This document shows, piece by piece, positions 54,652 through 59,199 of a stretch of 64,000 nt of DNA. Positions within the stretch are counted from its first letter, which is position 1. Every line of letters starts with the position of its first letter. The notes under the pieces were generated by a model, which searched no databases, was not told where the DNA came from, and saw only the letters and a program-made list of their open reading frames with translations. The position numbers and the translations under genes were made by a program. The stretch is taken from NCBI RefSeq assembly GCF_058153355.1, contig NZ_CM177019.1, one strand, 5' to 3'.

Positions 54652-57096
54652 ATGCCAACACCAAGCATCATCAAAACACTCGCCACTCACCGCGAAAAAC
54701 CGTTCGTCAGCGTCGTCACGCCAACCTGGAATCGTGGCGCATTTCTGCCGTACCTGCTCTATATGTACCGCTATCAGGACTACCCGGCAGACCACCGCGA
54801 ACTGGTCATCCTCGACGACTCACCGCAAAGCCATCAACACATCATCGACCGCCTGACCAATGGCACGCCGGAAGCCTTTAACATCCGCTACATCCATCAC
54901 CCGGAAAAACTGCCGCTGGGCAAAAAACGCAATATGCTCAACGAACTGGCGAGCGGCGAATACATCCTTTGCATGGACGATGACGACTATTACCCGGCAG
55001 ATAAAATCTCTTACACCATCGGCATGATGCAAAAACACCGGGCGCTGATCTCCGGTTCCGACCAGATCCCCATCTGGTACAGCCATATCAACCGCATCTT
55101 TCAAAGCCGCAGCTTTGGCCCGCATAACATCCTCAACGGCACCTTTTGCTATCACCGTAACTACCTGAAAAAGCACCACTACGATGATGATTGCAATTTA
55201 GGCGAAGAGAAAAGTTTCACCGACAATTTCAGTGTTAACCCGCTGCAACTGCCCGGCGAGCGCACGATTTTGTGTATCTCGCACAGCCACAACACCTTTG
55301 ATAAAGACTTTATTCTCGGGGCCAGCACGCCTGTAAATGCCGAACTGAGCGATATCGTCACCGATCCGCTGCTACGCAATGCTTATCTGAGTCTGCATAA
55401 CGCCACTCATCACCAGGCGATCAACCATCAGGCGATCGATCAGATAGTTGTTGTGAATCTGGATAAACGCCCGGATCGTTTACGGCAGATCCGTGAAGAG
55501 CTGGCATTGCTGCATATTCCGCCTGAAAAAATTACCCGCCTTGCCGCCTGTGAAGATGAAAACGGCCAACGGGGACGACGCCAGTCGCACTTGCAGGCGC
55601 TGCGCCTGGCGCAACAGCACGGCTGGCAAAATTACCTGCTGCTGGAAGATGACGCGGTTATTCTCAAGCAGGAGAAACATATTCAGGTACTGAACACGCT
55701 GCTGGCGAGCCTGGCGAAAATTCCCTGGGAGGTGATGAGCCTTGGTGGCGAAATTTCGCAAGGAACGATGCTGAAAAGTTTGCCGGGGCTGGTACACGCG
55801 CAGGACTGCCGCAAAGTGTGTGCTTATCTGGTGAACAGCCGCTACTACCCACAACTGGCGCAGCAGATGAGTAACGATGAGCACTCGCTGGAAGACGGCT
55901 GGCAGCCACTGCTGCGCACCGACAAATGGCTGGCCTGTTACCCGAGCCTTAGTTATCAGCGACCGGGCTTTAGTGATATCGAGAAAAAAGCGACTGATAA
56001 CATTAACCACTACTTCAATAAGTTACCCGTAGCCACCAAGCCATCCACATTACCCATCGCCGACACCATCGGCTTTTTTATGGAAACCTCCTTCCACTAC
56101 GCGCTCTATCGCCCAATCATCACCGCCCTACAGGCGCAGGGGCAGAGTTGCACGCTGGTGATCAACGATCGCGTGTTTAAACCATTTTTGGGTGAAATGC
56201 TGGAAACACTGAAAAGCATCGACGATCCACAGCTTAAAGGTATGCGCTTGTCTGAGATGCAGGAGCACAGTCAGCGGGTGAAATGCCTGGTCAGCCCCTA
56301 CCACACGCCCGCGCTCAATGGCATTTCACCCGTGAACGTTCGCGCCATGTACGGCTTAGCCAAAGAGACGTGGAACCACGCCGACTGGAACCGTTTTTAT
56401 CAGCGCATTTTGTGTTACAGCCACTACAGCCAGCAGGCACTAAAACATTTCGGTAGCGCAAAAGTGGTCGGCAACCCGCGCTTCGACGCCTGGCATAACG
56501 GCACGTTTGACCGCGCCCTGCCGGAAAATATCCAACCCGATTCCCGTAAACCTACGGTGCTCTACGCCCCCACGTTTGGCGCATTAAGCTCCCTGCCCCA
56601 CTGGGCAGAAAAATTGGGGCGCTTGAGCGGTAATGTAAACCTGATTTGCAAACTGCACCACGGCACCAGCTCGCGCCCGGAAGAAGCCGCATCGCTGACC
56701 CTGGCACGCAGGCATTTAAAACAGCGCACCGACTCCGTCCGCCACACGCTGGCGCTGCTGGCAAAGGCCGATTACGTGCTCACCGATAACAGCGGCTTTA
56801 TTTTCGATGCTATCCACGTTGATAAGCGGGTGATCCTGCTCGACTTTCCGGGCATGACGGAACTGCTCGACGGTGAGAAAAGTTATTCCACACCGGAGAG
56901 CGCCGACCAGCGAATCCGCGAAATATTACCGGTGGCTCATGATATGGCTGAGCTGCGTTACTTATTGTCAGAGGCGTTTGACTGGGGGGCGGAACAGGCG
57001 CGGCTTACGGAGATTCGCCATCACTATTGTGACGCGTTTATGGATGGCAAGGCGGGAGAACGGGCGGCGATGGCGATTGTGGAGGCATTGGGTTAA
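54652..57096 (+). CDS. Three-domain glycosyltransferase: GT2 + GT25-like + TagF-like CDP-glycerol glycerophosphotransferase domain
   Basis: Start moved past the repeat to MPTPSII; GT2 DxD (MDDDDYY), GT25-like middle domain (VVVNLDKRPDR), C-terminal VLYAPTFG motif resembling TagF YAPTWR. Confidence 0.7.
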   Translation: MPTPSIIKTLATHREKPFVSVVTPTWNRGAFLPYLLYMYRYQDYPADHRELVILDDSPQSHQHIIDRLTNGTPEAFNIRYIHHPEKLPLGKKRNMLNELASGEYILCMDDDDYYPADKISYTIGMMQKHRALISGSDQIPIWYSHINRIFQSRSFGPHNILNGTFCYHRNYLKKHHYDDDCNLGEEKSFTDNFSVNPLQLPGERTILCISHSHNTFDKDFILGASTPVNAELSDIVTDPLLRNAYLSLHNATHHQAINHQAIDQIVVVNLDKRPDRLRQIREELALLHIPPEKITRLAACEDENGQRGRRQSHLQALRLAQQHGWQNYLLLEDDAVILKQEKHIQVLNTLLASLAKIPWEVMSLGGEISQGTMLKSLPGLVHAQDCRKVCAYLVNSRYYPQLAQQMSNDEHSLEDGWQPLLRTDKWLACYPSLSYQRPGFSDIEKKATDNINHYFNKLPVATKPSTLPIADTIGFFMETSFHYALYRPIITALQAQGQSCTLVINDRVFKPFLGEMLETLKSIDDPQLKGMRLSEMQEHSQRVKCLVSPYHTPALNGISPVNVRAMYGLAKETWNHADWNRFYQRILCYSHYSQQALKHFGSAKVVGNPRFDAWHNGTFDRALPENIQPDSRKPTVLYAPTFGALSSLPHWAEKLGRLSGNVNLICKLHHGTSSRPEEAASLTLARRHLKQRTDSVRHTLALLAKADYVLTDNSGFIFDAIHVDKRVILLDFPGMTELLDGEKSYSTPESADQRIREILPVAHDMAELRYLLSEAFDWGAEQARLTEIRHHYCDAFMDGKAGERAAMAIVEALG

Positions 57097-57107
57097 ACCA
57101 CAGAAGT

Positions 57108-57204
57108 GCCTGATGCGCTTCGCTTATCAGGCCTACTCGCCGCTGCAGTAGTTTGAATAAGTGATGATTTGTAGGCCGGATAAGGCGTTTACGCCGCATC
57201 CGGC
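57108..57204. repeat. REP elements (two units) with an intact IS621 target motif
   Basis: GCCTGATGCGCTTCGCTTATCAGGCCTAC and GTAGGCCGGATAAGGCGTTTACGCCGCATCCGGC. Confidence 0.7.
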
Positions 57205-57422
57205 ACGAACAGCGCACTTATCTACCCTTCGATTTTAAATACATCTCTTTATGGCTGGTGAATCGGTAAAGTCGTAGATTGTGGGGGAGCGATCTTTATG
57301 AATTCTGAAAAAAACCTGAATCTTGCTAAACATATTGCTTATCATAAATATAGGTTACACACTATAAAAATTACTGCGTAATTTAACATTTTGTCTAAAA
57401 ATGATAGAGCATAAACGATAAC

Positions 57423-58244: not shown

Positions 58245-58791
58245 CATTGTATTGAGAAGCATTGTATTGAGAAGCTTTATTTTATTATTCATAATAATAG
58301 TGTATCCGGATTATAATAAAAACCCACCTGCCTTTGAAGTATATGGGGAAAATGACATACTTAAGGATATGGTTATTAATATGAAAACTTATAGATACCA
58401 TAGTAGGGAAAACTCTTCCCCCACAGCTATAGTGCAAACCATCCTTTTTAAAGGAAATATACAGCAAGTTTTTGAAAGCAATGACATGGGTGGTGCGAGC
58501 TTCTTTTTTTCTTATAACAATAAGGTTGAAACGCTGGTAACAGACGCTTTCTTTTTAAATAAAAAATTAGACAAACTGCATGATGCAAATATTTTTGAGG
58601 TTATAAAGCATAAGGAAAACATCGTTATTAGATATTACAAGTGCAAAATTGAATATATGCAAAGAGAAAAATTTATCGAAATAGAGATATCAACAAACAA
58701 AAATAGTTATTTTAACAAGAATGGAATAAAACAAAAAGATACAAATAAATATAACACATATTTCTTCAATTACTTTGAGTCTCAAAAATAA
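58213..58791 (+). CDS. Hypothetical membrane-anchored protein, strongly AT-rich orphan
   Basis: 192 aa, N-terminal hydrophobic helix, Lys/Asn-rich; contains a 15-bp perfect tandem duplication near the start; overlaps upstream ORF. Confidence 0.4.
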   Translation: MITGRINQMISIVLRSIVLRSFILLFIIIVYPDYNKNPPAFEVYGENDILKDMVINMKTYRYHSRENSSPTAIVQTILFKGNIQQVFESNDMGGASFFFSYNNKVETLVTDAFFLNKKLDKLHDANIFEVIKHKENIVIRYYKCKIEYMQREKFIEIEISTNKNSYFNKNGIKQKDTNKYNTYFFNYFESQK

Positions 58792-58794
58792 ATT

Positions 58795-59199
58795 TTATTT
58801 TGTCATGCGCGCCCTCCTAATCACCTCAATAATCCCCGTCGTCGACACTGACGGCGTGCGGGGGAAATAGACCACCTCACAAATATACGCGAAGCTATCA
58901 AACTTCCCCGCCCAGTCATCGCCCATCACCAAAACATCCGCACTGTAACCGCGCAGATATTCCGCTTTCAGCGCCAGCGATTCCTCGAGAAATACGCCAT
59001 CCACGCACGCCAGCCCGGCGATAATCGCCATGCGGTCATCCTGAGGGTAAACCGGTGCCCTGCCCTTTTTAGCAATGTTCAGGGCGTCAGACGATACGCC
59101 GACCAGCAGCCGTTCGCCCAGCGTGCGGGCGCGTTGTAAAAGGAGCAGATGACCGACATGAAACACATCGAAGGTGCCGAAGGTGATGACCGTTTTCAT
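58795..59199 (-). CDS. Cytidylyltransferase, TagD-like (glycerol-3-phosphate cytidylyltransferase family)
   Basis: Start moved to MKTVITFGTFDVFHVGHL (HxGH nucleotidyltransferase motif) with GGAG RBS; directly downstream of lfiJ. Confidence 0.8.
   Translation of the reverse strand: MKTVITFGTFDVFHVGHLLLLQRARTLGERLLVGVSSDALNIAKKGRAPVYPQDDRMAIIAGLACVDGVFLEESLALKAEYLRGYSADVLVMGDDWAGKFDSFAYICEVVYFPRTPSVSTTGIIEVIRRARMTK

Follow-up and report, generated by a model that had tools for sequence, protein, structure and literature searches.

A candidate CDP-glycerol-dependent modification module in the variable region of an Escherichia Flag-2 locus

Why should a flagellar locus of a Gram-negative bacterium, which has no teichoic acids, carry two genes that resemble those of teichoic acid synthesis? 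The question is raised by a 64,000-nucleotide stretch of DNA (NCBI RefSeq assembly GCF_058153355.1, contig NZ_CM177019.1; hereafter the window), of which the part from about 36 kb to the 3' end is a Flag-2 (lateral flagella) locus of an Escherichia lineage. In this locus a gene for a large transferase lies close to a gene for a small cytidylyltransferase, and an earlier note, made from the sequence alone, had read the pair as a system that uses cytidine diphosphate-glycerol (CDP-glycerol) to place a glycerol-phosphate-containing glycan on a flagellar substrate, most plausibly the lateral flagellin. As far as sequence analysis reaches, this interpretation is supported: the transferase carries a C-terminal domain of the TagF type, the small protein groups with the TagD-type enzymes, and the two are co-inherited across enterobacterial Flag-2 loci. 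We lean towards the view that they constitute a cytoplasmic module which glycosylates the lateral flagellin and adds glycerol-phosphate from CDP-glycerol before the flagellin is exported. The components of the module are:

54652..57096, plus strand: gene of the three-domain transferase (GT2-1 of De Maayer 2020), a single intact open reading frame (ORF) with its ATG at 54652, 814 aa
54700..55401, plus strand, aa 17-250: domain 1, GT-A fold, GT2 family (Pfam PF00535)
55441..56016, plus strand, aa 264-455: domain 2, second GT-A fold, GT25-like (fold, motifs and distant homologs)
56068..57093, plus strand, aa 473-814: domain 3, GT-B fold, TagF-like phosphotransferase (PF04464, profiles and motifs)
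58795..59199, minus strand: candidate TagD-like CTP:glycerol-3-phosphate cytidylyltransferase, 134 aa, closing the lfiEFGHIJ transcription unit

The three domains of the large transferase

The transferase, which is one residue shorter than the 815 aa previously given for it, is 94% identical to an E. coli cluster named 'glycosyltransferase' with 3759 member sequences. No transmembrane segment is predicted in it (the highest Kyte-Doolittle value over a window of 19 residues is 1.14), and the ratio of nonsynonymous to synonymous substitution rates (dN/dS) relative to E. coli SMS-3-5 is 0.126 for the whole protein and 0.11-0.14 for each of the three domains, indicating purifying selection. Pfam, run on the single sequence, barely sees the glycerophosphotransferase family (Glyphos_transf, PF04464) and misses GT25, and hence it was necessary to scan the family as a whole, to build profiles and to model the structure. 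An alignment of 32 full-length homologs (A1), each of which was scanned with Pfam, served as the basis of an AlphaFold model with a mean predicted local distance difference test (pLDDT) score of 81, in which three domains are connected by low-confidence linkers.

Several lines of evidence place the C-terminal domain with TagF, as the earlier note had proposed; the domain searches which it had set as the test of this proposal were run, and both the homolog scans and the profiles described below support it. Eleven of the 32 full-length homologs match Glyphos_transf at E<=1e-3, the best of them at 5e-8. A narrow profile of 11 C-domain sequences (A2) retrieved TarL alone from the PDB (E 1e-3), with LYAPT-x-G, K-[LM]-H, [ST]-D-[NY]-S-[GS]-x-x-[FY]-[DE] and a terminal DG-x-[AS]-x-x-R aligned between the two. 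Against 1.84 billion cluster representatives the same profile detected 2260 clusters at E<=1e-3, the named members of which are called 'CDP-glycerol glycerophosphotransferase family protein' by NCBI. When stand-alone members from this cluster search were added to give a broad profile of 32 sequences (A4), the PDB matches were Cps3D (3.3e-15), TagF of Staphylococcus epidermidis (2.8e-14) and TarL (2.5e-13), and no other fold family was recovered below E 0.04.

The window protein displays the motifs YG-x-AK (567-571), VLYAPTFG (636-643, the string noticed previously), KLHH (667-670), TDNSGFIFDA (711-720) and DGKAGER (798-804) in this domain. The donor-side motifs of the family, LYAPT-x-G, K-L-H-H, (T/S)DNSG-x-x-FD and DG-x-AG-x-R, can be aligned with TarL, TagF and Cps3D, and His584 of TagF (in R-M-H-Y) is paired with His669 (in K-L-H-H), which does not vary among the 62 diverse cluster representatives. 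The acceptor side is a different matter: a profile of the N-terminal subdomain of the C-domain alone found no match in the PDB, and neither did a single intermediate relative (P0176). Judged by its sequence, the C-terminal domain is thus a member of the TagF superfamily in which the donor site is conserved and the acceptor site is peculiar to the family. For the C-domain, Foldseek ranked UDP-N-acetylglucosamine (UDP-GlcNAc) 2-epimerases about equal to TagF; we rejected an epimerase role, since the broad profile matches only structures of the TagF family, the TagF motifs are conserved, and the same ambiguity between epimerase and TagF has been settled by experiment for FtaD of Clostridioides difficile. 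A search seeded with a clostridial relative and aimed at a link to FtaD gave 5 matches, all of them unnamed.

The N-terminal half comprises two GT-A domains. The first is a straightforward GT2 domain: PF00535 matches residues 20-189 over model positions 1-164 of 168 (E 4.8e-17) and recurs in 32 of 32 full-length homologs, and GT2 structures are also recovered in a PDB search with the transferase. The second domain has the motifs NLDKRPDR (269-276) and LEDD (331-334). The three-domain reading of the earlier note therefore holds for its GT2 and TagF-like parts, and for its GT25 part in fold and motifs but not as a Pfam assignment: PF01755 is absent from the Pfam scan of the window transferase even at E<=10, and appears in two of the 32 homologs, both of the Plesiomonas type (best 5.4e-6). 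A profile of the middle domain (A5) has the catalytic GT25 domain of human ColGalT1 (GLT25D1) as its best PDB match, at a weak E of 0.015, with NLDxRxDR paired to INLRRRQDR, LLLEDD to LVFEDD and W-E-V-x-x-L-G to W-D-L-I-Y-V-G, and G-x-x-SH likewise aligned. In a Foldseek search of the structure model against the PDB, ColGalT1 was again the top match (E 4e-16), over about 550 columns that span both GT-A domains in tandem. The likeness thus extends to the tandem GT-A/GT-A arrangement of residues 17-455 and to the GT25 motifs of the second domain; however, the identity is just 12-13%, the transferase keeps DXD motifs in both GT-A domains, and substrate and biology are unrelated, so that the resemblance is one of fold and architecture only. 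We accordingly call the middle domain GT25-like and do not regard it as a proven member of GT25.

The acidic DXD-type motifs of both GT-A domains, namely D55-D56 (within DDS, 55-57), D109-D112 (DDDD) and E332-D333-D334, are invariant among the full-length homologs, and as both domains keep such motifs both are plausibly active. In short homologs from Erwinia and Pantoea, the EDD of the middle domain has decayed to D-A-R, D-D-R or D-S-R, and in these proteins the middle domain may be non-catalytic.

The TagD-like enzyme and its co-inheritance with the TagF-like domain

The small gene begins with an ATG 2 nt past the stop codon of lfiJ and comes last in the lfiEFGHIJ operon, as had been noticed. 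Its product, in which FGTFDVFHVGHL corresponds to residues 7-18, contains the motifs HVGH (14-17), K45-x-R47, GDDW (93-96) and RTPSVSTT (114-121). The best relative in the PDB is TagD of Bacillus subtilis (1COZ, E 1.3e-29, 106 bits), matched over the full length with 45% identity and with the same motifs, followed by TarD of Staphylococcus aureus (2B7L, 2e-25, 93 bits); an ethanolamine-phosphate cytidylyltransferase (3elb, 1.4e-16, 64 bits) and the choline-phosphate cytidylyltransferases score far lower. Among the NCBIfam models the glycerol-3-phosphate cytidylyltransferase family TIGR01518 is the top family, the heptose adenylyltransferase model (rfaE domain II) reaching 70.6 bits and the flavin adenine dinucleotide (FAD) synthase types at most 18. 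Heptose adenylyltransferase and FAD synthase, identities rejected on these lower scores, were the families by which the TagD assignment might have been displaced; by NCBIfam, PDB and identity alike the protein groups with TagD and TarD. RefSeq names for this gene in E. coli vary between 'adenylyltransferase/cytidyltransferase family protein' and 'FAD synthase family protein'.

HxGH and RTxGISTT have been described as the cytidine triphosphate (CTP)-binding motifs which define these cytidylyltransferases (PMC8262930). The former is present exactly (H14-V-G-H17), and in the latter, which reads RTPSVSTT here, R, T and STT are kept while G is replaced by S and I by V. All 12 aligned Flag-2 orthologs conserve HxGH, K-x-[KR], GDDW and RT-x-x-[VI]-STT. 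TagD contacts the phosphates of CDP-glycerol through Lys44 and Lys46; the local sequence here is A-K44-K45-G46-R47, and MAFFT pairs K44 of TagD with K45 and K46 with R47, a K-x-R that is kept in all Flag-2 orthologs, whereas HMMER sets the gap elsewhere. With a dN/dS of 0.06 relative to SMS-3-5, the gene is under purifying selection. Taken together, the evidence favours a TagD-type cytidylyltransferase as the predicted product.

The functional pairing of the TagD-like and TagF-like components, suggested by the earlier note, is supported independently by their distribution. Related loci were collected from 100,044 species genomes and from the contigs of selected homologs and were then searched with the window proteins; the 22 loci fall into the following architectures:

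Fused GT2/GT25-like/TagF-like protein, 13 loci (Escherichia, Pseudocitrobacter, Citrobacter, Enterobacter, Pseudescherichia and others): TagD-like gene in 13/13
Short GT2/GT25-like protein and a stand-alone TagF-like gene (47-48% identity), 2 Erwinia loci: TagD-like gene in 2/2
Kps-type Capsule_synth domain replacing the TagF-like domain, 2 loci (L002 and Phytobacter L014): TagD-like gene absent
Short form alone, 4 loci (Serratia, Pantoea, Fukatsuia and one metagenome-assembled genome, MAG): TagD-like gene absent
Fused protein with a divergent TagF-like domain (33% identity), 1 Plesiomonas MAG: TagD-like gene absent, three other donor-pathway genes present

The TagD-like gene accompanies every TagF-like domain of at least 47% identity (15 of 15 loci) and none of the 6 loci that lack the domain. 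Fifteen loci thus contain both, none the TagD-like gene only, one the domain only and six neither, for which a Fisher test gives p = 9e-5, a figure inflated by linkage and shared ancestry. The informative part of the co-occurrence is the set of independent fusion, split and replacement events. In the complete E. coli genomes (n=5426) the two genes are found in 1276 and 1276-1279 genomes, and 19 of 19 enterobacterial relatives are located between lfiJ and lfgN. Throughout the Enterobacterales the flagellar locus is always where the genes are found, adjoining lafV, which resembles a flagellin methylase.

The two loci with a replaced domain deserve separate description. In an enterobacterial metagenome contig (L002, 8001-10628) and in Phytobacter massiliensis (L014, 9932-12583) the GT2/GT25-like core is joined to a C-terminal Capsule_synth domain of the KpsC/KpsS type (PF05159), and this swap implies a different terminal substituent. 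The neighbours of the former protein are encoded by a hexapeptide acyltransferase gene and, separately, by a small GT25 gene; at the matching position Phytobacter has a 214-aa ORF on the minus strand.

Relatives of the module and the known systems

The nearest relatives of the TagF-like domain outside the enterobacteria are also flagellar, and are accompanied by diverse donor-pathway genes:

Bacillus sp. (L025, 7001-16501): GT2/TPR/TagF-like protein directly after the flagellin gene; phosphonate genes (phosphoenolpyruvate (PEP) mutase fused to a cytidylyltransferase)
Clostridium taeniosporum (L026): flagellin directly upstream; donor partner not obvious
Metagenome (L027): fragment of flagellin in the vicinity; TagD-like gene (131 aa) immediately downstream
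Caldicellulosiruptor (L030, 1593-10216): between flagellin and flaG-fliD-fliS; TagD-like gene
Burkholderia ubonensis (L029, 5769-10332): after flhA, domain 36% identical; APH/choline-kinase-type kinase and NTP-transferase
Metagenome (L031, 3368-9925): kps-type capsule locus; phosphonate genes

A further full-length homolog of the transferase (38% identity), from the Plesiomonas MAG (L003, 8001-15618; JBOFNG010000110.1), adjoins motAB and a sigma-factor gene. Its partners are an NTP-transferase, a protein resembling gamma-glutamyl-CDP-amidate hydrolase (NF045546, 112 bits, below the cut-off) and a 1011-aa PEP-utilising enzyme (PRK05849, 901 bits). Campylobacter Cj1416-Cj1418 together with Cj1415 make the donor CDP-phosphoramidate 3'-phosphate, and the resemblance of the Plesiomonas set to Cj1416-1418 is a hint that a flagellar glycan may bear a group of the phosphoramidate type there. 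Within 8 kb, no kinase resembling Cj1415 came to light.

These contexts can be brought together, tentatively, in one joint reading, which as a whole we think doubtful and put forward as a conjecture. The TagF-like domains would form a clade spanning several phyla of 'CDP/CMP-X : flagellin-glycan phospho-X transferases', where CMP is cytidine monophosphate, characterised by the invariant Tyr-Gly-x-x-Lys, with the transferred group set by the neighbouring donor genes: glycerol-phosphate where TagD is the neighbour (Enterobacteriaceae, Caldicellulosiruptor), a group of the phosphoramidate type beside genes like Cj1416-1418 (Plesiomonas), phosphonate with PEP mutase (Bacillus), and another alcohol phosphate with kinase and NTP-transferase (Burkholderia). 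On the same conjecture, about a quarter of E. coli genomes would encode a never-observed lateral flagellin bearing glycerol-phosphate, possibly as a teichoic-acid-like repeat chain.

The statement of the earlier note that the TagD/TagF-like pairing could be matched to no characterised system was too strong, as the genes themselves, FtaD and FgtA had already been described. De Maayer, Pillay and Coutinho (BMC Genomics 21:100, 2020) named the stretch between lfiJ and lfgN variable region 1 (VR1) and catalogued GT2-1 (mean 828 aa, 222 strains), TagD (133 aa, 235 strains), TagB1-8 (65 strains) and LafV as its cargo, and suggested that teichoic-acid-type components occur in the Flag-2 flagellin glycan. 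Locus, position and genes are the same as in the window. They differ from our account in that GT2-1 was annotated as pfam00535 only and TagB was listed as separate proteins. What is added here is the recognition, in the C-terminal third of GT2-1, of a TagB/TagF-like partner for TagD, which explains the mismatch between the numbers of strains with TagD (235) and with TagB (65); also added are the GT25-like middle domain, the fused, split and swapped architectures, the strict co-occurrence with TagD, and a flagellin-associated domain family with interchangeable CDP/CMP-donor pathways.

Among systems with an experimentally established role, one of the closest in kind is that of the type A flagellin glycan of C. 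difficile (FgtA/CD0240 and FtaA-D/CD0241-0244), where a flagellin glycosyltransferase acts with a TagF-like enzyme and a CDP-activated donor. The TagF-like FtaD (CD0244, Q18CY0) is required for phospho-N-methylthreonine on GlcNAc-flagellin and has been reconstituted in vitro as a CDP-N-methylthreonine:GlcNAc-flagellin phosphotransferase. In Pseudomonas aeruginosa, FgtA (PA1091), which acts on b-type flagellin, is a glycosyltransferase fused to a TagF-like domain; both activities are thus in one protein, as is proposed for the 814-aa transferase, a likeness drawn from its description. In the window, too, a TagF-like enzyme, a predicted flagellin glycosyltransferase and an enzyme forming a CDP-donor are assembled in a flagellar locus. 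The differences are that CDP-N-methylthreonine is made by an enzyme of the NTP_transferase fold with helpers, whereas a single TagD-fold enzyme with CDP-glycerol as its predicted product is present here, and that the 814-aa transferase has two GT-A domains (GT2 and GT25-like) and no TPR region.

The second comparison is with TagF-like capsule polymerases, which join a GT-A or GT-B domain to a TagF-like domain and obtain CDP-glycerol from TagD-family enzymes (PMC8262930). Cps3D and Cps7D, with their partners Cps3B and Cps7B, share with the Flag-2 module the multidomain layout and the TagD-family cytidylyltransferase; however, their genes belong to group 2 capsule (kps) loci and they build their polymer on a lipid-linked primer, whereas the transferase here is encoded in a flagellar locus. 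No kps genes were found within the Flag-2 locus, which therefore lacks the capsule setting of Cps3D. With TagF, TagB and TarL of wall teichoic acid synthesis the domain shares the C-terminal CDP-binding half, including the conserved equivalent of His584, but it has no membrane-association region, and its acceptor half is not recognisably similar to theirs. The module hence differs from known systems of its kind by its TagD-type donor supply, its two GT-A domains and its association with lateral flagella.

Mechanism, alternatives and setting in the Flag-2 locus

The reaction sequence that we favour would begin with the TagD-like enzyme converting CTP and sn-glycerol-3-phosphate into CDP-glycerol; one extra gene would be enough for donor supply, because sn-glycerol-3-phosphate is already available in every cell. 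The GT2 and GT25-like domains would each use a nucleotide sugar to attach a sugar, so that a short O-glycan would arise on the lateral flagellin LafA. The TagF-like GT-B domain would then move glycerol-phosphate from CDP-glycerol onto a sugar hydroxyl with release of CMP, leaving a phosphodiester-linked glycerol-phosphate substituent. The proposed last step resembles the addition of phospho-N-methylthreonine to GlcNAc-flagellin by FtaD. The analysis itself establishes the identities of the domains, the conservation of the donor-side and TagD-type motifs, the joint inheritance of TagD and the TagF-like domain and the flagellar setting of the domain family; we infer CDP-glycerol as the donor, the LafA glycan as the acceptor, the sugars, the order of the steps and the number of residues added, be it one or several.

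A number of observations weigh against this scheme. On the transferase side, Glyphos_transf matches the window sequence only marginally (E 0.0031, residues 605-728), and the NCBIfam models of TagF/TarF give it no score. The catalytic base of TagF, His444 in a W-H-G motif, has no conserved counterpart: a weak alignment places it at residue 551 (S-P-Y-H-T-P), which is His here and Tyr in most homologs, and the Trp-His-Gly region, as compared with Cps3D, is replaced by an invariant Tyr-Gly-x-x-Lys, in which Tyr567 is invariant and Lys571 is present in 59 of 62 representatives within R-x-x-Y-G-x-[AGS]-K. For the cytidylyltransferase, the TIGR01518 score of 106.8 bits lies below the equivalog cut-off of 165.4, and HMMER pairs K44 of TagD with K44 and K46 with G46. 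The co-occurrence of the two genes, being at one locus, partly reflects linkage, and close phylogenetic relationships exist among many of the loci sampled. Furthermore, 36%-identical homologs use partners other than TagD, so that the domain by itself does not reveal its donor specificity. Flag-2 of E. coli EC958 was not expressed under laboratory conditions, which makes the system harder to approach by experiment.

Three alternatives have to be weighed against the addition of a glycerol-phosphate cap to flagellin. The enzyme could be a polymerase and not a capper, with one or both glycosyltransferase domains alternating with the TagF-like domain to build a teichoic-acid-like poly(glycosyl-glycerol-phosphate) on the lateral flagellin. 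This agrees with the capsule polymerase Cps3D being the best solved match of the broad profile (E 3.3e-15), with the described polymerase layout of an N-terminal GT-A and a TagF-like domain paired with a TagD-family cytidylyltransferase (PMC8262930), and with the proposal of teichoic-acid-type glycopolymers on Flag-2 flagellin by De Maayer et al. Yet FtaD, the characterised flagellin-associated relative, adds a single phospho-substituent, relatives of the domain are paired with donors that cannot be extended (phosphoramidate-type and phosphonate-type), which capping fits better, and a long anionic polymer would be hard to square with cytoplasmic modification followed by passage through the flagellar export channel. 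The sequence holds nothing that would separate a primase or capper from a polymerase, and on this balance we regard polymerisation as rather improbable. The transferred group might alternatively be another phospho-substituent, the TagD-like enzyme activating, for instance, phosphoethanolamine or another polyol phosphate. The sub-threshold score of this enzyme against the glycerol-3-phosphate cytidylyltransferase equivalog would accord with such a role, as would the membership of ethanolamine- and choline-phosphate cytidylyltransferases in the same fold family, where they also give significant matches (3elb), the replacement of RYVDEVI by ACVDGVF and of RTEGISTT by RTPSVSTT, and the clearly varied donors of the TagF-like domain family. 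Against it stand the much better matches of TagD and TarD (106 and 93 versus 64 bits), the full-length identity of 45% and the genomic context: loci predicted to use other donors carry a kinase or a precursor-making gene and the TagD-like loci carry none, which fits a ubiquitous substrate such as glycerol-3-phosphate. We judge a substituent other than glycerol-phosphate to be quite unlikely.

The third alternative concerns the target, which could be another flagellar protein (hook or cap) or a surface glycoconjugate unrelated to flagella, with the module merely a cargo of an integration hot-spot. VR1 is indeed a documented hot-spot with unrelated cargo (De Maayer 2020), an unrelated low-GC insert splits the two genes in the window, and one relative of the domain resides in a kps-type capsule locus (L031). 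Nevertheless, the transferase gene shares its strand with lfgAMN-lafV, which it follows, and there is tight coupling of the TagD-like gene to lfiJ; the position between lfiJ and lfgN is shared by all 19 enterobacterial relatives, and the nearest non-enterobacterial ones directly adjoin flagellin genes. The protein is also soluble, and lacks the membrane anchor expected for the synthesis of lipid-linked polymers. A target other than flagellin consequently appears to us very unlikely, and the capping of a LafA glycan with glycerol-phosphate remains the reading that we prefer.

The remaining features of the window bear on the setting of the module:

41852-42832, plus strand: IS110-family transposase gene, copy between lafA and lafB (fliD)
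42988..43902, minus strand: lafA, lateral flagellin, predicted acceptor (NCBIfam NF033376 LafA)
49092-50072, minus strand: IS110-family transposase gene, copy in the lfgD-lfgK interval
53495..54463, plus strand: lafV, FliB-like putative flagellin lysine N-methylase, directly upstream of the transferase gene
57100..58794, plus strand: low-GC insert outside the module, ~35% GC, 1.7 kb
57423-58244 (273 aa) and 58213-58791 (192 aa), plus strand: overlapping ORFs of the insert
59202..59636, minus strand: lfiJ (FliJ homolog)

The genes are ordered lfgD-lfgC-lfgB (minus strand), lfgA-lfgM-lfgN, lafV-like, transferase and low-GC insert (plus strand), then cytidylyltransferase, lfiJ, lfiI, lfiH, lfiG and lfiF (minus strand). 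Core genes flanking Flag-2 are at most 97.8% identical to those of any complete E. coli genome, and the region of both module genes is 92-96% identical to E. coli Flag-2 loci such as that of SMS-3-5. The predicted acceptor is a clear LafA (666.8 bits against NF033376, cut-off 440, ORF residues 34-337 matched). The product of lafV, a name taken from De Maayer 2020, reaches 37.8 bits against NCBIfam NF038110 (cut-off 85), and a Pfam scan of the protein gave no match; the true start of the gene is likely the ATG at 53534, and we treat it as context for the module and not as a proven partner. Between lafV and the transferase gene, the intergenic DNA (54480-54600) holds imperfect palindromic repeats rich in GC, GCCCCTCACCC...GGGCGAGGG and CTCTCCCTGTGGGAGAGGGCCGGGGTGAGGGGC, which belong to a dispersed enterobacterial repeat family; they gave rise to 138,208 megablast places in 5425 E. 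coli genomes.

The insert between the two module genes stands out by its GC content against the ~55% around it. NCBIfam and PHROGs scans of its ORFs found no match, and Pfam gives a weak match to DUF4347 alone (E 2.4e-4). Among the compared loci, tblastn detects the insert only in L001 (E. coli SMS-3-5), and not in those of E. whittamii, Pseudocitrobacter and Citrobacter; the whole 6.3-kb arrangement occurs in 144 of the ~1276 E. coli genomes that carry the module.

In SMS-3-5, lfgE-lfgJ (~5.4 kb) separate lfgD from lfgK. The corresponding interval of the window is 1.46 kb long and contains solely an IS110-family transposase gene, lfgE-J having been deleted. As these encode the hook, distal rod and L/P-ring, no lateral hook-basal body can be built by this strain, and its modification genes, though intact, are probably idle. 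With Flag-2 defective in the window, and silent under laboratory conditions in the E. coli strain that was tested, the practical value of the finding is limited.

If the proposal is true, the lateral flagellin of many Enterobacteriaceae bears an anionic glycerol-phosphate glycan; we know of no report of such a glycan on any flagellin. A gap in the published Flag-2 catalogue would be closed, the missing transferase being the unannotated C-terminal domain of GT2-1, and FtaD would become one example of a modular family in which donors can be swapped. The surface chemistry of flagellins would then be predictable from the genome, which would bear on immune recognition, phage adsorption and serotyping.

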